Positions 34,418-49,893 of a DNA stretch of 64,000 nt are shown here, piece after piece. Position numbers and translations under genes: made by a program. The notes beneath the pieces are model-generated. The model did not search any database. It saw nothing but the letters and a program-made list of their open reading frames with translations, and had not been told where the DNA came from. This DNA is from an uncultured Gammaproteobacteria bacterium (GTDB lineage Bacteria > Patescibacteriota > Microgenomatia > UBA8517): assembly GCA_964422865.1 (NCBI GenBank), contig CAYRCU010000001.1, positions 5,159-69,158 of the forward strand. The letters are read 5' to 3'. How positions within the stretch are numbered: position 1 is the first letter of the stretch; each line of letters opens with the position of its first letter.

Positions 34418-34440
34418 TTTTATACTATATCTTGTAATAA

Positions 34441-36321: not shown

Positions 36322-37362
36322 TTATCTCTGGCTTGAAAAACTTTTAAGTATTCCAAGAGACATATCGGTTTTTTTAATTGACTTTTGGGGATTTCTTTCT
36401 ACCTCGGATAAAGCTCTGATTGCATCAACGTTTTCGGGAATCACAATTGCTTCATTGTGAACTTGGTAATAAAAGGTAACATCACGCCCTTGCACATATA
36501 AAGAATCTTCCCAAAAAGCAACCTCCCACATATCTGCCCTCGGTCGTTTAAGATCTCGCATAAGCTCGACTAACTGATTTTCTGCAACCAATCCGTCTTC
36601 GTGCTTTACCGAAACAACCCGTGGTAAGGACTTTAACAAATTAACAATTTCATCTTTTGAAATTTCTTTATTTAATCTTATAAACGCTATATGAAGATGT
36701 CCCAGGGTCGTGGGAACCGCCATGGCCGCAGTAACGATATTTAAGCCGTGAATAACTTTTTGCGCGTCAATCCCTTGATGAGAAGGAATACTTTCTTCCA
36801 ACCTTATGGTCCCCAGTGGCCCTTGCTCGTGAGAATCAACCGGGTCTGATCCACGTCTAGCCAAAGCAATGTGGGCGACATCTAAAATCTGATCTCTTAC
36901 GAACGGATAAACGATTCTGCATATAGCTGTTGTATTGCAGGAAACCACTCTTAGACTCTTTTTACCTAAAGCATCACTGTAATTGACTTCTGCCACAAAG
37001 GAAAAACCGGTTAGATCGTGTTTCTCTCCGCCTTGAAATACAGATTTAACTCCAAACTGATCATACTTTTCTTTATTCTTCGCCCCAATTCCCTTTGGAG
37101 TTGCATCAACAATTATATCAACATATTTAAGTAGATTATCCAGATCACCCTTGCATTTATATCTGCTTGCCATTAGCTTTTGACATGCATCGGCATCAAC
37201 TCCATAAAGAGAAATGTTTGATTTTTTTATAGGGAAAAGCCGAAAGTCCGGTGTTCTGGCGGTTACTCCTACAAGTTCCATGTCGTCTTGTAAAAGTACA
37301 GCATCAGCAATTCTCTTACCGATAACTCCATAGCCATTTATTCCAACCTTAATCTTTTTCAT
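36322..37362 (-). CDS. Archaeal-type (type II) glyceraldehyde-3-phosphate dehydrogenase
   Basis: VGINGYGVIGKR Rossmann start and catalytic SCNTT motif, characteristic of type II GAPDH. Confidence 0.75.
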   Translation of the reverse strand: MKKIKVGINGYGVIGKRIADAVLLQDDMELVGVTARTPDFRLFPIKKSNISLYGVDADACQKLMASRYKCKGDLDNLLKYVDIIVDATPKGIGAKNKEKYDQFGVKSVFQGGEKHDLTGFSFVAEVNYSDALGKKSLRVVSCNTTAICRIVYPFVRDQILDVAHIALARRGSDPVDSHEQGPLGTIRLEESIPSHQGIDAQKVIHGLNIVTAAMAVPTTLGHLHIAFIRLNKEISKDEIVNLLKSLPRVVSVKHEDGLVAENQLVELMRDLKRPRADMWEVAFWEDSLYVQGRDVTFYYQVHNEAIVIPENVDAIRALSEVERNPQKSIKKTDMSLGILKSFSSQR

Positions 37363-37512
37363 TTAACAACAACCAGCAGCATTTTTTTTCTTATCTTTCT
37401 CTTTTAATTTCTTTCCACGATTATACAAAAATTTTCCGATGAAAGATTTCGGTTTTTCTTCAACTTTCTTGCTTTGTTTAGCGGTGCTGCTGCTTCCACA
37501 ACAATCTGACAT
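37363..37512 (-). CDS. 49-aa Lys-rich peptide with vicinal Cys pairs at both termini (MSDCC...AAGCC)
   Basis: Manual translation gives MSDCCGSSSTAKQSKKVEEKPKSFIGKFLYNRGKKLKEKDKKKNAAGCC. SD AAGGAAA lies 8 nt upstream. Its stop TAA abuts the GAPDH ATG, and it sits 14 nt after the Cu-ATPase stop. The ORF track shows only a longer artefactual 110-aa ORF here. Confidence 0.5.
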   Translation of the reverse strand: MSDCCGSSSTAKQSKKVEEKPKSFIGKFLYNRGKKLKEKDKKKNAAGCC

Positions 37513-37526
37513 GTTAATTGTTTCCT

Positions 37527-39677
37527 TTATATTGCATCTAAATTGACCTTTCTTAGTGTCATGGCGTTGACTACCACTATTACAGAAGACATGCTCATGA
37601 GTAAGGCGCCAACTTCGGGAGACAACCTGACTCCCCAGGGCACAAACAGCCCTGCTGCCGCAGGAATGGCTATGACGTTGTAGCCCAATGCCCAAACCAG
37701 GTTTTCAACCATTTTCCTGTATACTTTTTTAGCCAAAACTATCAGACTGACAATATCCTGAGGATTGCTTCGGGTCAAAACAACATCTCCTGCTTCAACA
37801 GCCACATCGGTGCCTGCTCCAACAGCTACTCCAACGTTTGATTGGGTTAAGGCGGGTGCGTCATTAACACCGTCACCCACCATCATAACTTTATTGCCCT
37901 CTTTCTGGAGTTTTTTAACATGCTCATATTTATTCTCCGGCAGTACTTGAGCAAAAACAGTATCGATGTTAAGTTCCTTTGCCACCCCGCCAGCCACTTC
38001 TTGACTGTCTCCTGTAAGCATTGCCACCTTAACATCAAGACTGTGAAGCTTGTCGATCGCCTTTTTAGATTCCGGTTTAATCTTGTCACTAAGGGCAATC
38101 AGGCCAATGATTCGTTTGGTGTTGGCTACAAAGGCGACTGTTTTTCCTTTCTCTGAAAGCTTCTGATAAAGCTGGTTTATCTTGTCGTCCAATAATCCCT
38201 TCTCTTTCATCAGCGTTCTGTTGCCAATTAAGTATTCCGTTCCTCCAACGCTGCCTTTTAGACCCTTGCCTGCCAAGTTTTTTATATTTTTAGCTTTTCT
38301 TGGCACGATTGCGTTTTCTTTTGCAAACTTAACAATAGAAACACCCAAAACATGTGAGGAGTGCTGTTCGATTGCAGAGATTAGTGAAAGAAGTTCTTTT
38401 TGTTTTGACGACAATTTGCTTTTGCTTACCTTTCCTTCCTCAATATCAATAACATCAGTTACACCAAACTCCCCAATTGTCAGAGTTCCGGTTTTGTCAA
38501 AAACAACATAGTCAACATCTTTTACAACTTCCAGCTTTGCCATATCTTTAATGAACACTCCGTTTTTTACCGCAAGCCTGGTAGCGATGGTCGAAACAGT
38601 GGGAATTGCCAGGCCCAAAGCATGAGGGCAAGCAATAACCAGGACAGTAATTGCCAATGTCATTGCAAACACAAAAGTCTGCCCCACCACCAAGGACCAA
38701 ATAATCAGAGTGAGAATGGCTACTGCCAGTGCACTAAAGGTAAGCCACCGGGAAGCTTTGTCTGCAATGCGCTGAGCGGTGGGCTTTGTCTGTTGTGCGG
38801 CAGATATTAGTTTTTGAATCTGCCCGATGGTGGAGCTTTCCCCGACTCGATCAAGAGTAATTTCAACTGATCCATCCAAACAAATTGCCCCGGCAATCGT
38901 CCTGTCACCTTTTGCCTTTTCAACGGGTTTGCTTTCTCCGCTGATGTGAGCTTCATTAAAATTAGCGCTACCTCTCAAAATAACACCATCGGCCGGGACC
39001 TTTTCACCCGGCAAAACCCGAACCACGTCTCCTTTTTTTAATTCATTAATATCAACGTCTCTTGTGCCTCCGTCAATAATGAGGTGGGCTTTCTTGGGCA
39101 AAAGCTTAGCTACCTCTTGCAGGGCATTGCCCGCAGCGCTAGATGATTTTGCCTCCAAGAAGTGGCCAAACAAGAGTACCCAAATAAGAGTTGAAATCTC
39201 CAGATAGAATTCGGCTTCGATTGAGGGCACAAAAGTTGAAACAGCAGAAAATAAGTAGCCTGCACCAACCGCTAAAGAGACCAGGGTCATCATCCCGTAC
39301 TGGCGGGCGCGAATCTCATGACTGGCATGTTCAAAAAACACCAATCCAAAGTAGAAAATGATTGTTGCCAGGCCAAATTCAAGGTAGGAGCGGAAAAAAA
39401 AGTCAGAGTAATTAAGAAAGTTAATGCCGAGTTTGCTGAAAATTGCCAGGGGAACCAGTAAAACAGTAACTATATAGAACCTACGAAGGAAGTTCTGAGC
39501 CGCCTCTGGCCCGGCCATCATGTTAGCGTGATCGTGTCCTTCATGGTTGTGGCTATGTTTCCCGACTTGATCCTCTTTGCCTTTTTCAACCAGGTCCATC
39601 CCACCACATTTAGGACACTTCCCGGGCTTATCGGAAATTACTTCCGGATGCATTGGACAAGTGTACATTTTACTCAT
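37527..39677 (-). CDS. copA: Copper-translocating P1B-type ATPase
   Basis: N-terminal YTCPMHPEV...CPKCGGM metal-binding motif. TM CPH (IACPHALG), DKTGT, HP, and the GDGVNDAP hinge. Confidence 0.9.
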   Translation of the reverse strand: MSKMYTCPMHPEVISDKPGKCPKCGGMDLVEKGKEDQVGKHSHNHEGHDHANMMAGPEAAQNFLRRFYIVTVLLVPLAIFSKLGINFLNYSDFFFRSYLEFGLATIIFYFGLVFFEHASHEIRARQYGMMTLVSLAVGAGYLFSAVSTFVPSIEAEFYLEISTLIWVLLFGHFLEAKSSSAAGNALQEVAKLLPKKAHLIIDGGTRDVDINELKKGDVVRVLPGEKVPADGVILRGSANFNEAHISGESKPVEKAKGDRTIAGAICLDGSVEITLDRVGESSTIGQIQKLISAAQQTKPTAQRIADKASRWLTFSALAVAILTLIIWSLVVGQTFVFAMTLAITVLVIACPHALGLAIPTVSTIATRLAVKNGVFIKDMAKLEVVKDVDYVVFDKTGTLTIGEFGVTDVIDIEEGKVSKSKLSSKQKELLSLISAIEQHSSHVLGVSIVKFAKENAIVPRKAKNIKNLAGKGLKGSVGGTEYLIGNRTLMKEKGLLDDKINQLYQKLSEKGKTVAFVANTKRIIGLIALSDKIKPESKKAIDKLHSLDVKVAMLTGDSQEVAGGVAKELNIDTVFAQVLPENKYEHVKKLQKEGNKVMMVGDGVNDAPALTQSNVGVAVGAGTDVAVEAGDVVLTRSNPQDIVSLIVLAKKVYRKMVENLVWALGYNVIAIPAAAGLFVPWGVRLSPEVGALLMSMSSVIVVVNAMTLRKVNLDAI

Positions 39678-39678
39678 T

Positions 39679-39945
39679 TTATTGTCTGCGCCTGAATACT
39701 TTCAATAGTTCCTTTATAGCTTTCTCTTTTTGGTTTTTAAACTGATCAGCCACATGAGTTTTAAGATGTCTTTCAAGAATCAAGGCGTCAAGACTCTTTA
39801 GAGAGTTTTGAATTGCAAGGGATTGGTCAAGCACGTTTGTGCAGTATTCCTCCTCTTCAATCATTTTATAAAGGCCATCTAATTGGCCTTTGATAATATT
39901 TATCCGCCTTTTTGCTTGCTTTTTAACGTCGTCAGATTTAAGCAT
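39679..39945 (-). CDS. CsoR/RcnR-family metal-sensing transcriptional repressor
   Basis: 88 aa with a DUF156 pattern and conserved Cys (YCTNV) and His (HLKTHV). Immediately upstream of copA. Confidence 0.7.
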   Translation of the reverse strand: MLKSDDVKKQAKRRINIIKGQLDGLYKMIEEEEYCTNVLDQSLAIQNSLKSLDALILERHLKTHVADQFKNQKEKAIKELLKVFRRRQ

Positions 39946-39992
39946 AATGCTTATACCCTACACCCCTCTGGGGTATATGTCAAGTATCTATT

Positions 39993-40880
39993 TTAATTTT
40001 TTACAACGTTAGCTGTAATCGTACTTGTAAGCTTGGGGAAGTTTGGATTGTCGGTATTAACATATATGGTGCGCGTTAACTCCCCTAGGTCGGTGTCATC
40101 TTTGTGTACTGCTGGATTGAAAGACACATTTACGGTCGTGCTCTCATATGTGTTCAATTCTTTTTTACTTACTTTAGCCGATGTACAGCCACAGGAAGTT
40201 GAAACGCGGGTGATTTTTAAAGGTAGTGGCGTGAAGTTGGTTAGGGTAAATGTCGTAGTTGGAACATCTCCGTAGATAACAGTGCCCAAATTATGATTGT
40301 CGGGTGTTATAACAACTTCGTTATTATGTTCTTTATACGCGTTAACTCCCCCGTCAAGATCATATACATTTGTGTATCCAAGACGTGCAATTTCTTGTGA
40401 GGCGTTTTTACTCATGCTTCCTGAGCGGCAATAAACTAGAATTGGTGTTGATTTGTCTTGGGGAAGCTTATCCAAGTTTTTTGATATTTCGTCAAAGGGA
40501 ATAAAAGCGTCGGTACCGGGTATATGGGTTTGCTCGGGTATGTGGACGTCAACCAGAAACCCGTCACCTTTTTTAACAAGTTCGGAAAATTGTGTTGGGC
40601 TGACCAGTTGTACTCCTTTTGAAGCAAAACTTTTTTGACCGGAGTTACTTTTATCGGATCCTGTGTTGCTGTATGCAAAAAATGTAACAACTACAACAAT
40701 TAATCCAAAAAAGGCTAACAAGCTGAAGGTTGCAGTTTTCCTAAAGCGGGCAGATTGAAGAAGTCTTCCTATTATCATTTTGTTAAACTCCACATCCGCC
40801 CCCGCCTTGTTGTGGTTGTGGAAGACTTTTAATTTTTTGTCGGGTTTCTTGATACCCTTGACCGCTGGAATATTGTGCAC
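39993..40880 (-). CDS. Rhodanese-domain plus DUF1573-domain membrane-anchored protein
   Basis: Rhodanese active-site loop YCRSGSMS. C-terminal DUF1573-like beta domain with SCGCTSAKV. TM near the N-terminus. Confidence 0.6.
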   Translation of the reverse strand: MHNIPAVKGIKKPDKKLKVFHNHNKAGADVEFNKMIIGRLLQSARFRKTATFSLLAFFGLIVVVVTFFAYSNTGSDKSNSGQKSFASKGVQLVSPTQFSELVKKGDGFLVDVHIPEQTHIPGTDAFIPFDEISKNLDKLPQDKSTPILVYCRSGSMSKNASQEIARLGYTNVYDLDGGVNAYKEHNNEVVITPDNHNLGTVIYGDVPTTTFTLTNFTPLPLKITRVSTSCGCTSAKVSKKELNTYESTTVNVSFNPAVHKDDTDLGELTRTIYVNTDNPNFPKLTSTITANVVKN

Positions 40881-41757
40881 TTAGAACCAGCTTTGAATCT
40901 ACTTCATTCCAATCTTGTCCTTGTTCCTCAAAGTATGTAGCAAGCTCGATATAGGTTTGAGGAAACCAATATGAATTAACTTTCAGTGCCGTATCATACA
41001 TTTTTCGTTCGCTTGCTCCATTTGCTACCATGAGCTCCAAAAGGCCAAGCATGGCCATTCCGTGATTGCAATCAGGGAAATGAGTTGAGTTTCCACAACA
41101 GGGTCTAAAAATTCCCCTTGACACACGATCAACCAGTTCCTGCTGTTCTTTTGTGAGTATGACATAGGGATGTGCACTGAAATGGTTCATCACATTGCCA
41201 CGACTAAGTGACCAGCCTCCGGTCGATGCAAACTTACTTGCATCTCCCCCATATTTTTGATCTGTCATTTCACCGTTTGTTAATATTTCATTTTTATTTG
41301 CCAAGCCAAATGCCCAAAGCATGTCAAGTAAAAACCTGCTATTTTGCGAGGTCATTACAATTTTTTTGTTCCACACCCCCGAAAGAATTTTTTCTTCGCT
41401 GTCTTGCAGGCCATTTTTAAAAAGCTCTTTGAACTTGGCTTCATCTATGACTCCATCTGCAACCATTCTTTTTCCCAGATCACCCCATGTTATTGGCAAC
41501 TCAACCCCTTCTTTTGAAATAACTGTGTCTTGTAATTTTGATGAGTCTATTTTTGACTCAGTCACCTTACCAGCCTTTTGGACTCCCTTATTTTTAGAAA
41601 TCAGGGTTGAAAAGCTAAACCTTGGTTTTATGTTAAAGCTAAAGACTTGAGTGAAGATAACGACTCCTAATAAAGTAAATGCTGCCGCTCTCCAAAACTT
41701 AATTGAATTATCTCTCTTTACGTTCTTGTTTATATTTTTTCTTACTAATCTGGGCAT
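40783..41757 (-). CDS. Secreted or membrane-anchored Cys/His-rich protein of unknown function
   Basis: N-terminal TM. Cys/His cluster FRPCCGNSTHFPDCNHGMAM. C-terminal QPQQGGGGCGV. No known domain recognised. Confidence 0.4.
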   Translation of the reverse strand: MPRLVRKNINKNVKRDNSIKFWRAAAFTLLGVVIFTQVFSFNIKPRFSFSTLISKNKGVQKAGKVTESKIDSSKLQDTVISKEGVELPITWGDLGKRMVADGVIDEAKFKELFKNGLQDSEEKILSGVWNKKIVMTSQNSRFLLDMLWAFGLANKNEILTNGEMTDQKYGGDASKFASTGGWSLSRGNVMNHFSAHPYVILTKEQQELVDRVSRGIFRPCCGNSTHFPDCNHGMAMLGLLELMVANGASERKMYDTALKVNSYWFPQTYIELATYFEEQGQDWNEVDSKLVLSAQYSSGQGYQETRQKIKSLPQPQQGGGGCGV

Positions 41758-41758
41758 A

Positions 41759-42265
41759 TCAAATGTAATAATTTAATAAAATGTAAATCCCCATGCTTAA
41801 AAGCAACATTGAGCCGAGACTTAAAATAATTGATTGAAAGGGGAACAAAACTTTTCCGTTTTTCTTTTTAATCAGAGTGTTTACCGTGTCAACTAAATAA
41901 AACAATATTCCTCCTGCAAGTATGCCGAATGTTAATTTAGGGAGATTAAATACAAGACCATTATGCTCATTTATAAGTCCAAATCTGTAGAAGGATACTA
42001 TTGTTGTAACAAAAATTAATAGATAGAAAACTTGCTTTTGGAATGGAATGTAAGTTTTATTAACTGAATTTGTGATCCAGAAACTCATAGCACCCAAGAA
42101 CGCACCCATCCAAACTCCGGTGATGGAATCGTCGATGCCCAGCACTCTTGAGAGTGACAACCCTGCGCCCGCACCCGCTACACAGAGTGGACAGTGCGCG
42201 TGAGCCGGTTTTGCAAATAATAAGCCCGTTATTGATAAGGGGATGCTGTATTTTAAGTTTTTCAT
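41759..42265 (-). CDS. Polytopic membrane protein with an N-terminal HCPLC motif
   Basis: Signal-like start. AHAHCPLCVAG. Four TM helices. Confidence 0.4.
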   Translation of the reverse strand: MKNLKYSIPLSITGLLFAKPAHAHCPLCVAGAGAGLSLSRVLGIDDSITGVWMGAFLGAMSFWITNSVNKTYIPFQKQVFYLLIFVTTIVSFYRFGLINEHNGLVFNLPKLTFGILAGGILFYLVDTVNTLIKKKNGKVLFPFQSIILSLGSMLLLSMGIYILLNYYI

Positions 42266-42897
42266 CTGATTACGGTTCCATCAAAGGTTAACTCTTTGAT
42301 TCCCGACGGTTTGCTAAAGGTTAGTCGCACGGCTCTATTGAAAGGCCCTACTCCCTGCGGACCATGAGCAGCAGGATTAAACTCCACAATTATTTTTGCT
42401 GTTTCTCCGGGAGGGATTTCAAAATTTATTGGAGGATTCTTATCTCCCGGGTGCTCCATGCCAAAAAATCTTGATTCTTTGCCGTTTAGTGACACCTTTG
42501 CCTTAGTACACATGCAGGAAGTTACAATTTTTTGCAATTTTGCGGTTTGAGTGGTCTCGTTTTTTACTTCATATTCTCTTGAGATTAAACCACCATTAAT
42601 CGGAACGTCACCGAGTTTGTAAGTTTCAGGACTAATTTGAATATCGGTAATCTGGACCTGAGATTGATTATTTTCGTCTGCAGTGCTTTCTTCTGTACCT
42701 TGCGAAAATGCAAAACCTATAACCAGAACGGCTGTAAGCGCAATAATTCCAAAAAATATTTTTATATCGCCAGATCCAAACTTGTTTATATCGCCAGATC
42801 CAAACTTGTTTATATCACTAGATCCAAACTTGTTTATATCACTAGATCTAAACTTGTTTATATCGCCAGATCCAAACTTGTTTATATCGTTTCCCAT
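42262..42897 (-). CDS. DUF1573-domain membrane protein with five N-terminal DINKFGSG repeats
   Basis: Tandem octapeptide repeats, one TM, and DUF1573-like TSCMCTKAKV. Confidence 0.55.
   Translation of the reverse strand: MGNDINKFGSGDINKFRSSDINKFGSSDINKFGSGDINKFGSGDIKIFFGIIALTAVLVIGFAFSQGTEESTADENNQSQVQITDIQISPETYKLGDVPINGGLISREYEVKNETTQTAKLQKIVTSCMCTKAKVSLNGKESRFFGMEHPGDKNPPINFEIPPGETAKIIVEFNPAAHGPQGVGPFNRAVRLTFSKPSGIKELTFDGTVIR
42760..42897. repeat. Five and a half copies of a 24-bp tandem repeat (GATCCAAACTTGTTTATATCGCCA) encoding DINKFGSG
   Basis: Direct inspection. Copies are near-identical, with a few substitutions. Confidence 0.8.
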
Positions 42898-43170
42898 TTA
42901 TTTTTCATTTCTCCCAAAAAGATCAACGATTTCTTCAATGAGTTTCTCTCTTTTGGATTTGGTTCCATGGATTTCATTAAAAACACATGAATGAAGATGT
43001 CCGTGAAGTATTAGTTCATCTACTTTTTTAAGTGCAGCTTGCACTGCTTTAGACTGATGAATCACATCAGGGCAATATGCATCTTCTTCAACCATACTGC
43101 GCACTTTTTTAAGATGCCCTTCTGCTCTTGCTAATCTATCTATTGCCTGCTTCTTGACAGTTTTATCCAT
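42898..43170 (-). CDS. csoR: CsoR-family copper-sensing repressor (canonical Cys-His-Cys form)
   Basis: 90 aa with C in YCPDV, HGHLHSC, and helix pattern matching CsoR. Confidence 0.75.
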   Translation of the reverse strand: MDKTVKKQAIDRLARAEGHLKKVRSMVEEDAYCPDVIHQSKAVQAALKKVDELILHGHLHSCVFNEIHGTKSKREKLIEEIVDLFGRNEK

Positions 43171-43233
43171 AATACCTATTCTATCCTTATCCCCCCGTTA
43201 GGGATATTATTTATAATAATGGATTGATTATTC

Positions 43234-43836
43234 TTGTCAATGGGGGAAAATAACAAAAATAAAATGAAAAAGAAAACCGATCAAAAAGAAATCGAGAAAT
43301 TATTAAAAAAAGTGGCAGATGTTACAAAAGAAAACAAGATTGATTTGTCCTCCGGTGAAGACCTTTCCGTGGGAATAATGAACCTTATTGCCATAGAAGA
43401 GCATCTTTTTTACACTTCACAAAAAACCGGAAAGAAAAAATATTTGGGTCTTCTTAATGAGATCCGAGCAATGCGAACAGAGCTTATGCAGGAGATAATC
43501 AAAGATTATGAAGGGGAGGTTTGGTGTATTAGTAAGCATTTGCTGGCTGCTTCGATGAGGGTGATGGAAGTTGGAACAAAGGAGCTTAAGAAAGGCAACA
43601 AAGACAAAGCTTGGAATTTATTTAGAAAGAGTTACAATCTTTACTCTTTATTTTGGGGCATAAACCTTGGCGTTGTTAAAACCGATAAAATAAAGCGTGG
43701 TGACAAAGGAGTGAATTTAACAAACAAGAGTTTGCAAGCTTCATTTATAGATGATGATAATAAAAGTGGGTCTGCTTCACTATTTAGCAAGCTTGGGCAG
43801 ATTGTTCAAAAGGCAATAGATTGTTGCAAAGAGTGA
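43234..43836 (+). CDS. Hypothetical Lys-rich protein ending in a C-terminal vicinal Cys pair (…AIDCCKE)
   Basis: 200 aa, divergent from csoR. C-terminal CC motif like merA and the 49-aa peptide. Confidence 0.4.
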   Translation: MSMGENNKNKMKKKTDQKEIEKLLKKVADVTKENKIDLSSGEDLSVGIMNLIAIEEHLFYTSQKTGKKKYLGLLNEIRAMRTELMQEIIKDYEGEVWCISKHLLAASMRVMEVGTKELKKGNKDKAWNLFRKSYNLYSLFWGINLGVVKTDKIKRGDKGVNLTNKSLQASFIDDDNKSGSASLFSKLGQIVQKAIDCCKE

Positions 43837-43897
43837 CTATTGGATGATCAGACTGGACTTATTGGAGGCATGAATAAGACAGCTTTGGAGAGAAACT

Positions 43898-45307
43898 CTA
43901 GATACAGCAACTTAATTTTGAGATGTCTTTCTTAAAAGAAAGCGCTGCAAGTTTTATTCCCTCGCTTAGTGTGGGGAACATTGGCAGCGAATTAATTACA
44001 TCATCAATAGTGTTTTTGTTTTTTACTAGCATCATGGCTTCAGCTATTAACTCTCCGGCTTGGGGAGCAAGAATATGAACTCCAAGAATTTCGGCTGTTT
44101 CTGGGTGAATACTCATACTAATCAGGCCTTCTGTTCTTCGCAGTATAGCGGCTTTGGGAACATGCTTGAAAGAGACTGTGCGACATGCGCAAGTATTCAT
44201 TCTTTTCATTTGTTCTTCCTCGGTTAACCCTACACCTGCTAGCTGGGGATCAGTAAAAATAGTATAGGGAACAGCATTGTAATCAATGTTATTCTTTGTA
44301 ATTTTGAGAGCGTTTTCGGCAGCTAAAGTTCCTTCACGACCGGCAGTCGTCTCAAGCCTGAGTGGTAAATCAACAACATCTCCAACCGCAAAAATGTTTG
44401 GATTATTGGTTTGAAAATTCTCATTAACCACTATAGACTTTCTATCATTTACTTTTACATTGGTAAGTTGCAGTCCCAAACCATTAGTATTTGCGGTCTT
44501 GCCTGTTGCCAAAAGGATTTCATCACAGATTATTTCATCTTGTTTGCCATCTACCTCATAAACAACAATTTTCTTTTCACCTTCTTTTCTTACGCTTTTT
44601 ATTGGAGCATTTGTTTTAACTGTAATACCTTCTTTTTTAAATATTTCTAATAATCGTGCCACCAGTGCTTTGTCTCCTGTTCTAAAGACTGCATCGCCTC
44701 TAACAAGCATTGTTACTTTTGTTCCAAATCGAGCAAACATTTGAGAAAATTCCAAGGCTATTGCCCCTCCACCAACAACCACCAGCTCTTTTGGTTGAGT
44801 TTCCAGTTTTAACGCTTCAATGTGAGTTATATATCCAGCTTTCTTTATTCCATCAATAGGAGGAATATTGGCTGTAGAGCCAGTTGCAATAATAAATTTA
44901 TCTGCTTGCAGCCTCTCTCCATTTACTTCAACTTCTGTTTCAGAAATAAACTTTGCTCGCCCTTCAATTAAAGTAACATTTTCAAGATTTGCCAGTACTC
45001 CCTCATACTTCTCATTGCGCATTTTCTCAACCAAGGAAAGCTCATCTGCTATAACTCTTTGAAAGTCAAAGTTTTTAACTTCAAGCTCTATGCCGGGGAC
45101 ATTGTGATTTTTTGCCAAGTGTAGTAATTCTCCTGCATAAAGCAGAGTTTTAGATGGAACACAACCAACATTTACACAAGTTCCTCCTAGAGGAAGCCCG
45201 TCATTTATTATTGCAGTTTTGGCTCCCAACTCATCGGCTTTAATGGCAGCCGCAAAAGCACCAGCTCCACCACCTATAATAACTAAATCAAACTGCTGTT
45301 CTGTCAT
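43898..45307 (-). CDS. merA: Mercuric reductase (core MerA, no NmerA domain)
   Basis: FAD motif GGGAGAFAAA. Redox disulfide GGTCVNVGCVPSK. C-terminal ...KLSCCI vicinal Cys pair characteristic of MerA. Confidence 0.75.
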   Translation of the reverse strand: MTEQQFDLVIIGGGAGAFAAAIKADELGAKTAIINDGLPLGGTCVNVGCVPSKTLLYAGELLHLAKNHNVPGIELEVKNFDFQRVIADELSLVEKMRNEKYEGVLANLENVTLIEGRAKFISETEVEVNGERLQADKFIIATGSTANIPPIDGIKKAGYITHIEALKLETQPKELVVVGGGAIALEFSQMFARFGTKVTMLVRGDAVFRTGDKALVARLLEIFKKEGITVKTNAPIKSVRKEGEKKIVVYEVDGKQDEIICDEILLATGKTANTNGLGLQLTNVKVNDRKSIVVNENFQTNNPNIFAVGDVVDLPLRLETTAGREGTLAAENALKITKNNIDYNAVPYTIFTDPQLAGVGLTEEEQMKRMNTCACRTVSFKHVPKAAILRRTEGLISMSIHPETAEILGVHILAPQAGELIAEAMMLVKNKNTIDDVINSLPMFPTLSEGIKLAALSFKKDISKLSCCI

Positions 45308-45675
45308 TTGTTTTCAGTATAAATCGTATCAGAGTAGATTGTCGCCTTATATGGTTCTATCGCTTTAATAATTTGTTCGTCGCTTACTTTTCTTTTCTCG
45401 TAAATTACCCACCCCTCACCGTCAAGATTATCCGTAAAACCCACATAAGCATCGATTACACCGCCAACTGCCTTCAGATTGTATTCTGCGCCAACTGCGC
45501 ATGAAGTACACCACATTCCTTCGATTGATAATTCTGCCTTGTATAACTGTCGTCCATTAAGCGAACCCAGTACTGCCGAAACTCCATTATTTGAACCAGA
45601 AATCCTATTTTTTGTCATAATCCCTCCTAAAATAGCTGTGCTTAGTACCACAATTAGGAAAATAATTTTTCTCAT
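45304..45675 (-). CDS. merP: Secreted HMA-domain mercury/metal-binding protein (MerP-like)
   Basis: Signal peptide plus GMWCTSCA (MxCxxC) HMA motif. Confidence 0.6.
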   Translation of the reverse strand: MRKIIFLIVVLSTAILGGIMTKNRISGSNNGVSAVLGSLNGRQLYKAELSIEGMWCTSCAVGAEYNLKAVGGVIDAYVGFTDNLDGEGWVIYEKRKVSDEQIIKAIEPYKATIYSDTIYTENK

Positions 45676-46046
45676 AAATTAGTGTCGAATCTTAGTTGAT
45701 AAACCCAGGGTGCAATCAAAGGTGTGACAATAAAAGTCAAAAAATAATAAAGCAAGATTGCTACTAAGAATGAACCGCCAAACATCAATAACTGTTGTTC
45801 TTTGGCTAAATGTTTACTTCGGCAGTTTTTTCTATATAACTTATAAAACCCAAACCCTAAAACCATTATCCCAAAGCCAAGAAAATACGGCTTACGGTAG
45901 CCAATAGATAAAGCAGTTGATGCACTGCCTACTCCCAGTAGAATTAGTGCGAGAGGGCCAATGCAACACAGGGAGGCGACAAGGGCTGATAACACACCCC
46001 ATTTCAGAGATGAATCAGTGGTTCTTTCCTGTTCGTTTTTTTTCAC
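45672..46046 (-). CDS. merT: Mercuric transport protein MerT-like
   Basis: First TM with a vicinal Cys pair ASLCCIGPLALILLG, as in Tn501 MerT. Three TM helices. Confidence 0.65.
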   Translation of the reverse strand: MKKNEQERTTDSSLKWGVLSALVASLCCIGPLALILLGVGSASTALSIGYRKPYFLGFGIMVLGFGFYKLYRKNCRSKHLAKEQQLLMFGGSFLVAILLYYFLTFIVTPLIAPWVYQLRFDTNL

Positions 46047-46435
46047 AATAATTCTTTTATTTTTTCATTTTTTAAAGAGTAATAAATAGTTTGCCCTTCT
46101 CGACGAGTTGCCACTATCCCGGCTTTGCGCAGCAGTTTTAATTGATGGGATACTGCTGATACAGTGGTGCCCAGAATTTCTGCCATGTCACAAACACAAA
46201 GTTCGTTTAATTCACCAATCAGTTTAATAAGCTTATAGCGTGTTTCTCCTGAAAGCAGTTGGTGAAGCTTAATCTTTTTGGCCAAGCTCGTATCTTTTTT
46301 TAGAGCGCTGTAAACCTTATTGATCTCTTTCTTTGACAAAGTCGGGCCAACACAAATGTGACCCAAGTGTTTTACTTTCATGATGTTTGAATAAGTGTTC
46401 AAATAAAGAATATTAGGTGAATCCTGTTCTGTCAA
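46043..46435 (-). CDS. ArsR/SmtB-family metal-responsive transcriptional regulator
   Basis: ELCVCDMAEILGTTVSAVSHQLKLLRKAGIV gives a metal-binding CVC plus a wHTH recognition helix. It is the first gene of the mer-like operon. Confidence 0.7.
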   Translation of the reverse strand: MTEQDSPNILYLNTYSNIMKVKHLGHICVGPTLSKKEINKVYSALKKDTSLAKKIKLHQLLSGETRYKLIKLIGELNELCVCDMAEILGTTVSAVSHQLKLLRKAGIVATRREGQTIYYSLKNEKIKELL

Positions 46436-46469
46436 TAGCCAGCCGGGTGAGCTTGACCCGTTTTGCGGC

Positions 46470-47111
46470 TTAGTGGGCTAATTTTTCCGGTGATTGATTT
46501 ATATAAGTGTCTATGTATTTTTGAATTAGGGCTTTGTCAACTTCGACAAGCTTCATCATTCTCCCCCAAGAAGCAACTACAACCGAATCCTCGTTTTCGT
46601 CTCGTTTGGTTATAACAACGCTGTTGTTGTTATTTTTAGCTATACTTTTAAGCTTGTTGATACTTCCTTTGTCTAAATCTTTGTATGTGATCCAGATTCC
46701 GCCGTGTTCTAAATTGTGCACTAATTGCTCATCGGGAAGCTCTTTGTCATAAAACCTCCAATCGGCAGGTGTGGACCAGTGCGGTCCTGATGTAGGAGGG
46801 TTTGTTTTATATAAAACTGTTTCTTTTGAGCTTATGTGGTTGACTCCCTCAATTTTAAATTCTTCAACTTTACCCTCTAAGGACACCTCATCTACTTTTT
46901 GCTCAAACGCAATTTCCTCCGGGGATTTTTTGCTAACCAGATAATAGCCTGCGACTACAATGACCAAGACAGCAATCAAAACCGCAATATTTCGCAACTT
47001 TTTAATAGTTGCTTGTTGTTTGGTTTTTTTTCTTTTGAGTTCTTTAATCTTTTTCTTGCGATCTCTTTTGGTCAGATCATCCCATTCTTTAGGATAGTCC
47101 ATAAATTTCAC
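46470..47111 (-). CDS. DUF3105-like membrane-anchored protein
   Basis: NPPTSGPHW...LVHNLEHGGIWI motifs. N-terminal TM. Confidence 0.5.
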   Translation of the reverse strand: MKFMDYPKEWDDLTKRDRKKKIKELKRKKTKQQATIKKLRNIAVLIAVLVIVVAGYYLVSKKSPEEIAFEQKVDEVSLEGKVEEFKIEGVNHISSKETVLYKTNPPTSGPHWSTPADWRFYDKELPDEQLVHNLEHGGIWITYKDLDKGSINKLKSIAKNNNNSVVITKRDENEDSVVVASWGRMMKLVEVDKALIQKYIDTYINQSPEKLAH

Positions 47112-47116
47112 CTCCT

Positions 47117-47857
47117 TTACTGCTTAAGCTCCAGCATAAACGCCGATGTTCCTAACTTCTGTAAAAAATAAGAGGAAACCAGTGAAAACTTTCCGGTAAA
47201 AATTAGTATCCCAAAAATTACCAACAATATTCCTGAGATTTTGTTTATCACCGGAGCATAGGTGTTAAATTTCTTGATTGAAGGAAACACTTTATCAAAA
47301 AAAAGTCCCAGTAATACGAATGGTGTTCCAAGACCAAGAGAAAAAAACAGCAAGAGAGGAAGAGCCTCGATGAATGTGGATTGAGATCCTGCCCAGAAAA
47401 GAATGGCTGCAAGTACCGGCCCGACACACGGTGTCCAGGCAAATCCAAAAGTTGTTCCCAATAAGAAGGCACCAGATGCGGCGCCGCGGTTTCCTTTAAA
47501 TTTTGTTTGATAAGTTTTGTTTAGAAATGGGATGGATACCAGTTTGGCAAACTGCAGACCAATAACTATTAATAGTAATCCTCCAACTTTATTAATAAGC
47601 GGCCGATAGAGCGTTAAACTTCTGGCAAAAGTATTAACTGTTAGACCAAGTAGAAGAAAAATGAATAAAAAACCTGAAGTAAACACCAGCGCATTTTTCG
47701 TAAATACGGCTTTGTGTTTGGCACTCAATCCTTCCGGAGCACTGCCCGCAAGATATCCCACATACGCGGGAGCAATTGGAGCTAAGCATCCTGCAAAAAA
47801 GGTTAAAATGCCTGCCGTGTAGGCAATGGCAAAATTAAATATTGACAGAGGAACCAT
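47117..47857 (-). CDS. ccdA: Cytochrome c-type biogenesis/thiol-disulfide transporter CcdA (DsbD TM domain)
   Basis: Six TM helices with Cys in TM1 (FFAGCLAP) and TM4 (FAWTPCVGP). Confidence 0.7.
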   Translation of the reverse strand: MVPLSIFNFAIAYTAGILTFFAGCLAPIAPAYVGYLAGSAPEGLSAKHKAVFTKNALVFTSGFLFIFLLLGLTVNTFARSLTLYRPLINKVGGLLLIVIGLQFAKLVSIPFLNKTYQTKFKGNRGAASGAFLLGTTFGFAWTPCVGPVLAAILFWAGSQSTFIEALPLLLFFSLGLGTPFVLLGLFFDKVFPSIKKFNTYAPVINKISGILLVIFGILIFTGKFSLVSSYFLQKLGTSAFMLELKQ

Positions 47858-47872
47858 TATTAAAAGTGTTTG

Positions 47873-48637
47873 TCATGACTTAGACAACATATCATCAATT
47901 GCTTGTTTTAATTGCGGATAAGGAACTGCCCCAGGAATCAACCTGGTGTTACCTGTTTTTGTATCAAGCAGGATGTTGCCCGGTGTTCCCGTTACACCTG
48001 CTTTTATCCCACTTTGATAGTCATCTTCTACATGTTGAGTGTATTTTCCACTATCAAGGCATGACTTGAAGGCTGATTCATCTATTCCTATCTCGGAAGC
48101 CAGTTTTGGTAAATCACTTATGTTAAGACCGTTATTGCTTGGAGTTGTTTCAAAGATTTTATCTATTAGTGCCCAGAAGCCTTTTTCACCTGCCAGCTCG
48201 TTTGCGCACTCTGCTGCCTCGGCTTCTTTGTCTGCTTTTGAGTGAATTTGGTCAAGGGGGAAATGTCTATAAATCCACATTACTTGTCCATCATATTCCT
48301 CGATCGCCCGTTGTGCTGTTGAATGAAAACTTTTACAGAAAGGACATTCCAAATCTGAATATTCTATTAAGGCGATTCTTGCGTTTTTGTTGCCTCTAAT
48401 GTGATCGTTTTTTCTTACAGGTTCGACATCGCCCGCTGTGGGCTGGGTGGGTTGCTTTGCTCCAGAGCCTGTTCCGGCCGAGCCGTTAATTTCTGCCAGA
48501 CCAGCAGAGGACGTCTTGTTTTCAAGATTCTGCACTTTTTGCCAGAGTATGCCTACGGCGAAAGCGAAGCCCACTAAAATAATAACTAAAATCGGCGCCG
48601 ACTTTTCAAGAAGATTTTCTTTTACCTTAGAAGACAT
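47873..48637 (-). CDS. DsbA-family thiol:disulfide oxidoreductase (membrane-anchored)
   Basis: Thioredoxin fold with CPFC active site (ECPFCKSFH). N-terminal TM. Confidence 0.7.
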   Translation of the reverse strand: MSSKVKENLLEKSAPILVIILVGFAFAVGILWQKVQNLENKTSSAGLAEINGSAGTGSGAKQPTQPTAGDVEPVRKNDHIRGNKNARIALIEYSDLECPFCKSFHSTAQRAIEEYDGQVMWIYRHFPLDQIHSKADKEAEAAECANELAGEKGFWALIDKIFETTPSNNGLNISDLPKLASEIGIDESAFKSCLDSGKYTQHVEDDYQSGIKAGVTGTPGNILLDTKTGNTRLIPGAVPYPQLKQAIDDMLSKS

Positions 48638-48670
48638 ACTACAGAGTGTAGTAGGAGTTTTGATCCTTTG

Positions 48671-49546
48671 TCAACAGTTAAAATGTGTGGAACATTGATA
48701 TTTACTGCAGTTTGTTTGGTTTGAGTTATCTGTAATTTGAACCGTGTGGCTCTGTGCGGGAAAGAGAAAGAGCAAAGCGCCAATTATCAGTGTCACCCCT
48801 GAAATAGCAAAATTCATTTTTAGAGGCTTGTAGTCGGATCTTTCAGAAAAATTAGGGAACAGATCGAATTTTTGCTGTGCTTTTATCTTTACAAGGGCTA
48901 GTTTGAGATGTTTTGCACTTTGCTGCTTGCCCGTGGCAAAATTATCCGCTTCTTTTTCCAGTGTAATTCTCATCTTGCGTGTGTAGTCTTTAAAGATCGG
49001 GATAAAAAATAAGGATGAAGATAAAATTTCACTTATAACAACTATTAATGGATGCCTTCCTTGCAAGTGATAATACTCATGAAGAATAACTGATTCTAAT
49101 TCTTTTTTGTTTAGCTTGCCCATGAGTCCTGTTGAAATTATTATTTTTGGCTTTAGCCAGTCAGCGGTCAGGGCAATGTCGCTTTTTGAATTAATAAGTA
49201 TTACTTTGTCATTTTTAATTTTATTTTTTTTAAGAATTTTTAGGAGTTTTAAGTTGTTCTTTGGAGCTTTTTTTTGCAACAAATCTGACAATTTTCTTTT
49301 TGTTTTTATGTAGGAAAATATTACTTTTACAAAAAAAACAATTGCTATAAAAATTGTTAATATAATCAACAAGAACCCGATGTGATGCACTATGGAAAAA
49401 AGCAAGTTTGAAGAGACTTGTCTGCATGCTTTAGCGAAGTGAATAAAAGTCAACAAGGCATACTTATTTAAAAGCAAGATTAAAAGGTAGATGGAAATTG
49501 TAAAAATTGACAAGGTGCCAAGAAAAAATTGCGTTTCCTTTCTCAT
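48671..49546 (-). CDS. BlaR1/MecR1-like M56 peptidase signal transducer (CopY-partner type)
   Basis: Polytopic membrane protein with HEYYHLQGRH zinc-peptidase motif. Confidence 0.65.
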   Translation of the reverse strand: MRKETQFFLGTLSIFTISIYLLILLLNKYALLTFIHFAKACRQVSSNLLFSIVHHIGFLLIILTIFIAIVFFVKVIFSYIKTKRKLSDLLQKKAPKNNLKLLKILKKNKIKNDKVILINSKSDIALTADWLKPKIIISTGLMGKLNKKELESVILHEYYHLQGRHPLIVVISEILSSSLFFIPIFKDYTRKMRITLEKEADNFATGKQQSAKHLKLALVKIKAQQKFDLFPNFSERSDYKPLKMNFAISGVTLIIGALLFLFPAQSHTVQITDNSNQTNCSKYQCSTHFNC

Positions 49547-49893
49547 GTTTTTTGTTCGTGTTCTTTTAGTTCGTCGGTAAAAGCAGCTACCGCTTCTTCC
49601 CCATATTGGTCAATTAATGAGTTTACAATTTTATTGATTACAGTTTTGACGGTTTTTTTTCTTGTTTTTTTGGGAGAGTATAAATATGCCTTCCCGATTT
49701 TTCTTCTGGTCAGCAGTCCTTTTTGGGTGAGCCTTGTCATAATGGTCATAACAGTTGTATAGGCAATTTTTCTTTTTTTCAGTAAGCACTTGTGAACATC
49801 ATGGACTTTGCAATCAGTAGTTTCCCAAAGACAATTCATAATTTCTTGCTCAAGCGGACCCAAACTGTACTTAGTCATTTGTCTTAATAGCAT
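49543..49893 (-). CDS. BlaI/MecI/CopY-family transcriptional repressor
   Basis: 116-aa wHTH (YTTVMTIMTRLTQKGLL). 4-bp overlap with the M56 gene. Confidence 0.7.
   Translation of the reverse strand: MLLRQMTKYSLGPLEQEIMNCLWETTDCKVHDVHKCLLKKRKIAYTTVMTIMTRLTQKGLLTRRKIGKAYLYSPKKTRKKTVKTVINKIVNSLIDQYGEEAVAAFTDELKEHEQKT

Follow-up and report, generated by a model that had tools for sequence, protein, structure and literature searches.

The window analysed here, a stretch of 64,000 nucleotides of contig CAYRCU010000001.1, belongs to the chromosome of a Woesebacteria-like bacterium of the candidate phyla radiation (CPR) and carries, at positions 36322–49893, a locus of 19 tightly packed open reading frames (ORFs). 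A copper module within this locus (36.3–43.8 kb) encodes two CsoR-family repressors and a CopB-like ATPase together with unnamed cysteine-rich proteins, among them the anchored protein U324. Our survey of related loci reveals that the unnamed proteins are truly linked to copper genes, and that the copper module is a standard CPR feature. The unnamed cysteine-rich surface proteins probably handle copper outside the cell, and we favour, with moderate confidence, a system in which CsoR-controlled copper export is combined with Cu(I) capture and thiol protection outside the cell, Scs- or CopL-like in function. The known parts (CsoR, CopB, mer genes, DsbA, CcdA, BlaI and M56) are ordinary; the value of the locus lies in the CPR-wide, copper-linked unnamed cysteine-rich families, above all U324. 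The gene identities, motifs, candidate operators and cross-genome linkage are established here.

All ORFs except U200, which is on the plus strand, are encoded on the minus strand (18 of 19), and their spacing ranges from a 4-nt overlap to about +60 nt. All were found where an initial annotation, made from the sequence alone, had placed them as a tight cluster, and nearly every domain call in it was confirmed by Pfam and NCBIfam hidden Markov models (HMMs), applied with their own cut-offs or gathering thresholds. Its theme of Cu/Hg detoxification and extracytoplasmic thiol redox with uncharacterised Cys/His proteins is likewise borne out by the domain calls; the 'periplasmic' location was an assumption, and 'extracytoplasmic' is all that can be supported. 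The locus consists of about six transcription units in three separately regulated modules, with at least five promoter-like sites and four different regulators: BlaI/M56 with dsbA-ccdA-DUF3105 (46.5–49.9 kb), ArsR-merT-merP-merA, and the copper module. Start codons are likely to be moved in four genes, to 46381 for ArsR (112 aa), 40778 for the rhodanese–DUF1573 protein (261 aa), 43240 for U200 and 47102 for DUF3105.

Unnamed cysteine-rich families linked to copper genes in CPR genomes

The copper module comprises the following features.

43240–43836, plus strand: U200 (g10), a CPR-conserved cytoplasmic protein, predicted helical bundle, with invariant IEEH, WCISKH and C-terminal DCCxE
43188–43206: G/C-tract pseudo-palindrome TATCCCTAACGGGGGGATA, candidate CsoR operator between the divergent csoR1 and U200 promoters
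42898–43170, minus strand: CsoR1 (g11), CsoR-family repressor with x-C-H-C triad (C33, H58, C62); PF02583, E 9e-24
42262–42897, minus strand: membrane-anchored DUF1573 (Ig-like) protein (g12); PF07610, E 2e-11; TSCMCT, FGM and FNPAAHGP
41759–42265, minus strand: M168 (g13), polytopic membrane protein of 168 aa; no Pfam or NCBIfam match; conserved AxA/HCPLC
40783–41757, minus strand: U324 (g14), N-terminally anchored extracytoplasmic protein of 324 aa; no family; basic N-terminus and one transmembrane (TM) helix
39993–40778, minus strand: membrane-anchored rhodanese (CRSGSMS loop) fused to DUF1573 (TSCGCT) (g15), 261 aa; PF00581, E 1e-13; PF07610, E 6e-15
39960–39976: candidate CsoR box ATACCCC-AGA-GGGGTGT (ATACCCCAGAGGGGTGT), between TTGACA (39983–39978) and the csoR2 start
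39679–39945, minus strand: CsoR2 (g16), CsoR-family repressor with x-C-H-H (C35, H60, H64); PF02583, E 4e-22
37527–39677, minus strand: predicted CopB-like P1B-type copper-exporting ATPase; TIGR01511, 552.6 bits against a cut-off of 397; PF19335, E 1e-13
37363–37512, minus strand: pep49, a 49-aa peptide with CC at both ends and the core PKSFIGKFLYNxGKK; own ribosome-binding site AAGGAAA; its stop (TAA) abuts the gapdh ATG
36322–37362, minus strand: type II (archaeal-type) phosphorylating GAPDH, glycolytic; NF003251, 428 bits against a cut-off of 185

Pfam and NCBIfam gave no family for U200, M168, U324 or the 49-aa peptide, and a relaxed Pfam search returned nothing for M168, U200, pep49 and four other co-occurring unnamed families. 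Three unknown Cys/His proteins, two of them with DUF1573, had been expected in the csoR1 operon; M168 and U324 are indeed unknown and without Pfam match, and DUF1573 is present only in g12.

U324 is the most telling of these families. Its bulk should face outwards, since a basic N-terminus precedes a single TM helix. The family counts more than 7200 homologous cluster representatives, with 59–73% identity among the 120 best, all of them 'hypothetical' and none with a Pfam domain, and a pattern scan with one genome per species detects it in at least 579 species genomes. Among the best 80 matches, the titled records are mostly CPR (Woese-, Levy- and Roizmanbacteria, WWE3 and many Parcubacteria clades); the remaining titles are partly Pseudomonadales, Gammaproteobacteria or 'bacterium', labels that are taken as given. 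U200 is as abundant, with more than 7000 cluster representatives. These counts, together with the wide occurrence of MerA in CPR, contradict the earlier view of the locus as unusual for a reduced genome. Alignment of 85 U324 sequences shows at least 95% conservation of RPCCGNSTxFPDCNHGMAMLGLL and of the cysteine in the C-terminal GGGGCG.

The neighbours of U324 were surveyed in 83 loci from diverse CPR lineages (cited below, with a few further loci, by L numbers), whose ORFs were searched with the proteins of the window. Many of these loci are incomplete. DUF1573 is found near U324 in 62 loci and the P1B ATPase in 56, followed by the CsoR2-type repressor (28), CcdA (24), rhodanese–DUF1573 (22), U200 (18), the DsbA-like protein (14), M168 (12), M56 (5), BlaI (4), DUF3105 (4) and MerA (2). 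Linkage of the unnamed proteins to metal genes, on which the initial annotation had made its proposal depend, is conserved: among the 22 loci with full 10-kb flanks, DUF1573 lies within 3 kb of U324 in 20 and the P1B ATPase within 10 kb in 20. A module gene on the same strand as U324 lies within 300 nt in 68 of the 83 loci. The recurrent order is DUF1573-(CcdA or M168-U200)-U324-(DUF1573, rhodanese–DUF1573), with csoR-copB nearby and the strand nearly always that of U324; CcdA directly precedes U324 in many related loci, and in the Woesebacteria locus L004 the gene order is almost identical to that of the window. Chance falls far short of explaining this clustering, which is repeated in dozens of independent genomes.

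Unbiased clustering of the neighbouring ORFs adds DUF411/CopG in 12 loci (Pfam E 2e-24), a two-component system, SHOCT-like, DUF302 and thioredoxin-like proteins, and three more unnamed membrane families with cysteine motifs; YHS and HMBD proteins are also among the neighbours. The three membrane families comprise a 141-aa protein with HIKCPFES...C (29 loci), a 149-aa protein with SCCTHYL (19 loci) and a 151-aa protein with VCPIC...EDCC (16 loci). A protein of about 285 aa adjoins the ATPase and, like these three, has no Pfam match. Examples of the U324-linked unnamed families are found at L053 7481–7906, L078 10882–11331, L083 43–495, L001 15335–16195 and L002 5139–5993. C-terminal vicinal cysteine tails are present in MerA, U200, the 49-aa peptide and the 151-aa membrane family, and can be regarded as a recurring device here since all four share them.

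Regulators, pump and surface proteins of the copper module

Both CsoR proteins score far above the PF02583 threshold of 22.8 bits (CsoR1, 84.1 bits; CsoR2, 78.9 bits). According to a sequence-network study, x-C-H-C is the motif of characterised Cu(I) sensors and x-C-H-H that of the Thermus thermophilus-type copper sensor (PMC8643695; see also PMC5057107). With these Cu(I) ligand fingerprints, CsoR1 and CsoR2 can both be read as probable copper sensors; H64 of CsoR2 is conserved only moderately among relatives. The csoR1 gene is the first of an operon, csoR1-DUF1573-M168-U324-rhodanese/DUF1573, whose genes abut or overlap. Its promoter-like site, TTGACA-16-TATTAT at 43240–43213, faces an opposing U200 promoter at 43154–43182, and the operator region is common to U200 and csoR1. 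The candidate operator TATCCCTAACGGGGGGATA has a counterpart in L004, ATATCCCCATGGGGGGGATA, located 21 nt upstream of the L004 csoR1. CsoR operators are described as G-tract pseudo-palindromes (PMC3902906).

The second repressor heads csoR2-copB-pep49(-gapdh), with gaps of 1 nt between csoR2 and copB and 14 nt between copB and the peptide. Consistent with the candidate box of the window, in at least 13 related loci a CsoR2-type gene is preceded by ATACCCC-N3-GGGGTAT at a distance of 3–26 nt (mostly 13–16 nt), and the CsoR box of Corynebacterium glutamicum has the same sequence (PMC5057107). The ATPase contains an N-terminal HMBD, a His-rich stretch, CPH in TM4, YN, MSMSS, DKTGT and GDGVNDAP. 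It is assigned as CopB-like (P1B-3) because of the CPH in TM4 and the His-rich N-terminus (IACPHALGLAIP and GKHSHNHEGHDH, respectively).

Judged by its conserved sequence, the 49-aa peptide is a real gene. Six representatives of 48–89 aa share MS[DE]CC...PKSF[IF]G[KR][FY]LYNxGKK...CC; two members are fused to HMBD, one among these six and one in L012, and a homologue in L090 ends a rhodanese–DUF1573/copB/YHS operon. In L089 (538–956) a pep49-family gene translationally overlaps the gene of a small DUF5676 membrane protein. L008 and L012 likewise encode small membrane proteins near the module, marked by a WWMHGM motif. Further CC-tailed small proteins of 50–104 aa, ending in GGCC(H/G), are encoded at L012 17135–17449 (minus strand), L042 19688–19855, L030 10853–11026 and L066 11116–11268. 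They adjoin U324 or the ATPase, often have a linker rich in His and Lys and, at the N-terminus, an HMBD or TRASH-like Zn-ribbon, and form a loose family of putative metal carriers.

The gapdh gene follows pep49 with 0-nt spacing (TAAATG). GAPDH expression might be coupled to the copper operon, because its ATG abuts the pep49 stop and the nearest same-strand promoter-like site (37778–37750) lies inside copB. A phmmer search found no GAPDH near U324 in related loci, and GAPDH is a glycolytic neighbour rather than a metal gene. In L002, an aldolase and an FBPase follow the ATPase.

Both DUF1573 proteins of the csoR1 operon exceed the PF07610 threshold of 26.1 bits (g12, 44.4 bits; g15, 55.6 bits), and the DUF1573 domains of these loci share TSC[MG]CT, FGM and FDPxxHGP. 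The CxC is marked as the active site because it is U-G-C in selenoprotein members (PMC9312934). The rhodanese–DUF1573 fusion of g15 recurs in L090 as well as in the surveyed loci. A 24-nt tandem repeat at 42761–42889 of the window (5.4 copies, 94% matches) gives the N-terminal tail of g12, on the cytoplasmic side, a series of (F)GSGDINK repeats; homologues of this DUF1573 protein are without the repeat. In L039 (8262–9833) and L038 (1–1113), directly upstream of U324, DUF1573 is preceded in the same protein by an extension of about 350 aa with repeats that look like a YVTN-type beta-propeller.

M168 has homologues in 12–13 loci, always on the U324 strand. Its conserved AxA/HCPLC (cleavage at the slash) predicts signal-peptidase processing to a mature protein that would begin with His-Cys-Pro-Leu-Cys, a histidine beside a CxxC. 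Profile–profile comparison of M168, the 141-, 149- and 151-aa membrane families, CcdA, MerT and U200 gave no support for M168 as a divergent CcdA or MerT; the sole signal was a weak match of the U200 CC tail to that of the 151-aa family. M168 and U200 were also considered as substitutes for CcdA and rejected, as U200 and CcdA co-occur in L030, L032, L042 and L079.

The AlphaFold model of U324 (predicted local distance difference test score (pLDDT) 74.7, predicted template modelling score (pTM) 0.70) contains an alpha/beta domain at about residues 68–160 and a helical domain at about 200–310, with the cysteine cluster in a loop after the first helix of the latter. Structural comparison gave U324 a single specific match, to the thiol oxidoreductase CcmH (PDB 2hl7), and a resemblance of the C-terminal helical domain to CcmH is a moderate lead at the level of the predicted model. 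A Foldseek search of the model against the PDB gave nothing at E <5.8 and did not recover the CcmH match, and a PDB sequence search with the U324 profile gave noise only. By sequence, a relation to CcmH was rejected: no Pfam match, to PF03918 or to any other family, appeared at E ≤10 in 21 U324 members, and hhalign against Escherichia coli CcmH gave E 0.2 both for whole U324 and for a C-domain profile of 83 sequences, pairing RPCCGNST of U324 with LRCPKCQNNS of CcmH without significance.

Proposed copper handling outside the cell, the accompanying modules and alternatives

The copper module is accompanied in the window by a thiol-redox module under a BlaI-type repressor.

49543–49893, minus strand: BlaI/MecI-family winged-helix repressor, 116 aa; PF03965, E 2.2e-25
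48671–49546, minus strand: BlaR1-like M56 membrane metalloprotease, 291 aa; PF05569, E 6e-13; HEYYH
48637–48653: perfect 7-3-7 palindrome TACTACA-GAG-TGTAGTA, candidate BlaI-type operator, 0 mismatches
47873–48637, minus strand: membrane-anchored DsbA-like thioredoxin-fold protein with active site CPFC (ECPFC) and N-terminal TM anchor; PF13462 (Thioredoxin_4), E 1e-22; PF01323, E 2e-16
47117–47857, minus strand: CcdA, DsbD transmembrane core, thiol electron transporter; PF02683 (DsbD_TM), E 3e-12
46470–47102, minus strand: membrane-anchored DUF3105 protein with NPPTSGPHW and HNLEHGG; PF11303, E 7e-32

The first two genes, which overlap by 4 nt, had been described as a BlaI/BlaR1 (CopY-type) pair. 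A PF03965 repressor and an adjacent M56 protease with HExxH are indeed present; the CopY identity was rejected, as the repressor reaches only 53.8 bits with TIGR02698 (cut-off 121.95), lacks the C-terminal CxCx4CxC and has no cysteine in its C-terminus. No penicillin-binding (PBP/transpeptidase-like) sensor domain was found in the M56 protease, which matches only positions 100–245 of the M56 profile and ends in a short extracytoplasmic Cys/His tail (NCSKYQCSTHFNC); its homologues in L001, L005, L019 and L059 have variable cysteine-containing tails. BlaI, MecI and CopY proteins use TACA/TGTA-type boxes. The palindrome of the window covers the -10 hexamer and the start codon of dsbA, at the promoter-like site of dsbA-ccdA-DUF3105 (48674–48645), and BlaI or DsbA genes of L005, L014 and L019 are preceded by CTACA-N2-3-TGTAG boxes at a distance of 4–31 nt. 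Upstream of blaI, no copy of the dsbA-promoter box was found at up to 3 mismatches. A site at 34423–34439 (TACTATATCTTGTAATA), directly upstream of a 410-aa ORF at 34441–35673, has 2 mismatches to the palindrome, a count that lies within chance expectation. The CcdA cysteines lie in TM1 (AGCLAP) and TM4 (TPCVGP). DUF3105 stands directly 3' of U324 in L043, L073 and L076, and is called with 210 aa in L086.

Wedged between the dsbA operon and U200 is the mercury cassette.

46043–46381, minus strand: ArsR/SmtB metalloregulator, 112 aa from Met19, with an alpha-3 ELCVCD thiolate site; NF033788, 86 bits against a cut-off of 55
45672–46046, minus strand: MerT-like mercury uptake membrane protein with a CC pair in TM1; PF02411, 38.1 bits against a gathering threshold of 32.9
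45304–45675, minus strand: secreted or anchored HMA-like metal-binding protein, MerP analogue, with GMWCTSC; HMM matches all below cut-off
43898–45307, minus strand: core mercuric reductase MerA, 469 aa, no NmerA domain; TIGR02053, 537.1 bits against a cut-off of 454.45

A promoter-like TTGACA-17-TATTCT (46435–46407) lies within the over-long ArsR ORF, and ArsR is called with 112 aa in L084 and L086. The regulator belongs to the ArsR/SmtB and not to the MerR family, an arrangement also found in other CPR genomes. NCBIfam MerT and MerTP matches of the MerT-like protein fall under their cut-offs, as do those of the MerP-like protein to UxxU_metal_bind (41 bits), to the C-terminal half of MerTP and to MerP (18 bits; TIGR02052 cut-off 92.55); the equivalent gene in L087 matches PF00403. 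MerA retains both the GGTCVNVGC redox site (CVNVGC) and a C-terminal SCCI. Its homologues (70–83% identity) are widespread in CPR, and the CPR form of mercury reductase is already known, since many CPR genomes carry a PGAP annotation of it as mercury(II) reductase. An ArsR-MerA-MerT-HMA or ArsR-MerF-MerA unit lies in unrelated surroundings in two large CPR contigs. The mer cassette is thus a self-contained, separable add-on, ordinary and already annotated. In L087 (1–7620, Patescibacteria), ArsR-MerA-MerT-HMA directly follows a prophage-like block (FtsK-like, RecT, S24 repressor and large serine recombinase), which suggests that the cassette moves among CPR genomes on such elements.

In the copper-handling system that we favour, cytoplasmic Cu(I) would bind CsoR1 and CsoR2 and release them from their G/C-tract palindromes. 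Release of CsoR2 would derepress the CopB-type ATPase, by which copper would be pumped out, and pep49, a putative small cytoplasmic Cu(I) carrier or buffer that may substitute for CopZ. Release of CsoR1 would derepress the DUF1573 protein (CxC/His/Met site), M168 (HCPLC), U324 and the rhodanese–DUF1573 protein; U324 has the site CC-x8-C-x-H-x-M-x-M and, apart from it, the flexible GGGGCG tail. CsoR1 probably also controls the divergent cytoplasmic U200 with its CC tail. The surface proteins may then trap Cu(I) after its export, through thiolate, imidazole and thioether ligands, repair copper-damaged surface thiols, or do both. Upon a putative envelope signal, the BlaI-type repressor and the sensor-less M56 protease would control dsbA-ccdA-DUF3105 via TACTACA-N3-TGTAGTA, and CcdA would carry reducing power outwards to keep the surface cysteine sites reduced, with the DsbA-like protein helping to manage it. 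By comparison, ArsR-merT-merP-merA would act as an autonomous unit that imports Hg(II) and reduces it to Hg(0). In this scheme, Cu(I) binding by U324, DUF1573, M168, U200 and pep49, the direction of electron flow and the signal to which the M56 protease responds are the parts that we infer.

Several observations weigh against this scheme. The CsoR1 operator of the window is an imperfect palindrome (C3 against G6), and a C4-N-G4 box stands directly upstream of DUF1573/U324 genes in few related loci only; with so few boxes, there are firm grounds for copper control of the surface genes only in the window, L004 and L013, where the operon begins with csoR1. The dsbA-ccdA operon was detected alongside BlaI/M56 in few loci only. 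It is not obvious what the rhodanese domain would contribute to copper binding, and it may act on sulfane sulfur. Confidence in the U200 model is low (pLDDT 62), and its fold matches are generic. Finally, the literature on DUF1573, DUF3105, CPR copper systems and merA in Patescibacteria yielded no functional study of these families.

A wider version of the copper-handling scheme can be put forward tentatively, as something possible rather than probable when all its parts are taken together. U324 would then be a new CPR-specific family for extracytoplasmic Cu(I) binding and thiol redox, in which a CcmH-like helical domain bears CC-x8-C-x-H-x-M-x-M and GGGGCG forms a 'swinging arm'. U324, DUF1573, the surface rhodanese, M168 and CcdA might together constitute an undescribed copper-trapping pathway driven by the reducing power of the cell, with trapping via persulfide or copper sulfide on the surface of wall-less-periplasm cells, and the CC-tailed pep49 and U200 would replace CopZ as Cu(I) carriers.

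The strongest alternative assigns the DUF1573/M168/U324/rhodanese operon mainly to extracytoplasmic thiol-disulfide or reactive-sulfur chemistry, in which its products would reduce, isomerise or trans-persulfidate surface proteins, with copper as just one inducer and without binding metal themselves. The likeness of U324 to a thiol oxidoreductase fits this, as do the position of CcdA directly before U324, the fusion of DUF1573 to a rhodanese with an intact CRSGSMS loop, and the occurrence of selenocysteine in the DUF1573 CxC of some organisms, a typical trait of redox proteins. Moreover, the CsoR family includes persulfide sensors that regulate rhodaneses (PMC8643695), and Scs proteins show copper tolerance via disulfide isomerisation (PMC10907172). 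However, the x-C-H-C of CsoR1 with its triad histidine is the motif of characterised Cu sensors (PMC8643695), the invariant H-x-M-x-M of U324 and the His/Met residues of DUF1573 are typical Cu(I) ligands that disulfide chemistry does not need, and the neighbours CopB, HMBD, YHS and DUF411/CopG are specific to copper. We regard a purely thiol- or sulfur-based system as plausible but less likely; it overlaps in part with copper capture and does not exclude it, as ScsC does both (PMC8900818).

The predicted CcmH-like domain of U324, with its invariant cysteine cluster in the loop between the first two helices, and the adjoining CcdA would also suit a CcmH/CcdA-like maturation factor for a specific secreted cysteine client, with copper genes nearby by coincidence. 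This is improbable: the linkage to copB and csoR in 20 of the 22 complete loci is too consistent to be incidental, the LRCxxC of CcmH is not conserved (U324 has RPCC-x8-C), and no Ccm/Res genes or obvious CXXCH client appeared among the family matches and ORF clusters of these loci, in which no systematic search for them was made.

The weakest alternative, the earlier view of the whole 13.5 kb as one horizontally acquired, integrated Cu/Hg island, could draw on the short gaps with 18 of 19 genes on one strand, on a thiophilic-metal and thiol theme common to all genes and on an independent 5.3-kb Logan contig (L084/L086) that keeps the order as far as it extends (an incomplete ORF upstream of ccdA, DUF3105, mer genes, U200 and csoR1), but is very improbable and largely refuted by the at least five promoter-like sites and about six units under four regulators, by the GC content and tetranucleotide usage, which match the rest of the window without a convincing signal of acquisition (only the ATPase gene reaches z about -2.3, the mer genes about -1.2), by the absence of any integrase, transposase or tRNA boundary or adjoining tRNA or mobility gene, by housekeeping flanks (ClpB, an RNase H-like gene, TruB and Lon), and by the occurrence of the copper module in hundreds of CPR species, with MerA within 10 kb of U324 in only 2 of the 83 loci and mer genes elsewhere in unrelated neighbourhoods. 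Among the flanking genes, the ClpB-like gene (window 49941–52103) encodes only 720 aa with the first AAA match from residue 63, so that its product appears to be without the usual N-terminal domain. Two large ORFs upstream of the locus (window 33260–35673), one of 385 aa with a signal peptide and the other of 410 aa, belong to no Pfam family.

Copper capture and thiol protection at the surface, as favoured here, would concern a large share of bacterial diversity, which the CPR represents. The locus is a typical CPR arrangement and not an exotic acquired island. That hundreds of CPR species with tiny genomes retain the copper module suggests that surface copper or thiol stress is a major selective pressure on CPR. 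U324, U200, M168 and the CC-capped peptide are abundant, with no name, no Pfam model and no known function; their invariant Cys/His/Met motifs and their clear genomic linkage to CsoR and CopB make them good candidates for new metal-binding or redox folds, and such work could be carried out in vitro or in a surrogate host, with no need to grow CPR bacteria.

Comparison with known systems

The regulatory pair of the thiol-redox module resembles BlaI/BlaR1 and MecI/MecR1, in that a PF03965 repressor translationally overlaps an M56 HExxH protease and a TACA...TGTA palindrome lies on the target promoter. It differs in that the protease has only a short Cys/His tail in place of the beta-lactam-sensing domain, and the putative target is dsbA-ccdA-DUF3105 rather than a beta-lactamase or PBP2a; nor is the repressor a CopY, as it has no Cys-hook. 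In the same way, the mercury cassette combines MerT-like, MerP-like and MerA proteins in one unit as merR-merT-merP-merA operons do, with both Cys pairs in MerA, whereas its regulator is ArsR/SmtB instead of MerR, its MerA lacks NmerA and its MerP-like protein stays below the cut-offs. By comparison with CcmH (PDB 2hl7), U324 shows no significant sequence similarity, carries RPCC-x8-C-x-H-x-M-x-M instead of LRCxxC, has an extra N-terminal alpha/beta domain and the GGGGCG tail, and is not accompanied by cytochrome c machinery.

Scs systems (scsABCD of Salmonella, Proteus and Caulobacter) consist of copper-linked envelope thiol-redox proteins fed by a DsbD-family electron transporter, and ScsC acts as a disulfide isomerase as well as a tight Cu(I) binder (PMC10907172, PMC8900818). 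A similar combination of CcdA, DsbA-like and CxxC membrane proteins beside copper genes is seen in the CPR loci. No sequence homology to ScsA, ScsC or ScsD was detected for U324, M168 or DUF1573, although no Scs sequence was compared directly and the libraries are not known to hold Scs models; the matches obtained were generic, to the DsbD TM core for CcdA and to thioredoxin-family models for the DsbA-like protein. The CPR loci further differ in having a minimal CcdA rather than ScsB, and CsoR/BlaI regulators rather than CpxR/CueR. The likeness to Scs may thus be taken as a functional analogy, not as membership. The envelope of the host is presumed to be Gram-positive-like, because no outer-membrane components were seen. 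In Staphylococcus aureus, copB-copL (copXL) encodes, as here, a CopB-type pump with a membrane-anchored, surface-exposed protein, and CopL, a lipoprotein exposed at the surface, binds Cu(I) and is proposed to keep it sequestered outside the monoderm cell (PMC5947656, PMC11672702). CopL is, however, a DUF1541 lipoprotein with another fold and other ligands, to which no homology was detected; the CPR locus has anchored DUF1573, U324 and M168 proteins and a rhodanese.

A parallel in gene order is provided by the csoR-copZ-copA/copB operons of Gram-positive bacteria and Thermus, in which a CsoR-family repressor stands directly upstream of the P1B ATPase and is autoregulated via an ATACCCC-N3-GGGGT box. 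This box is identical to that of C. glutamicum CsoR (PMC5057107), and both known sets of Cu ligands occur in the window (PMC8643695). The locus differs from these operons in lacking an HMA-type CopZ, the position of the chaperone being taken by the 49-aa CC-capped peptide, HMBD-fused in relatives. Furthermore, it contains two CsoR paralogues, one of which heads an operon of surface proteins rather than the pump.

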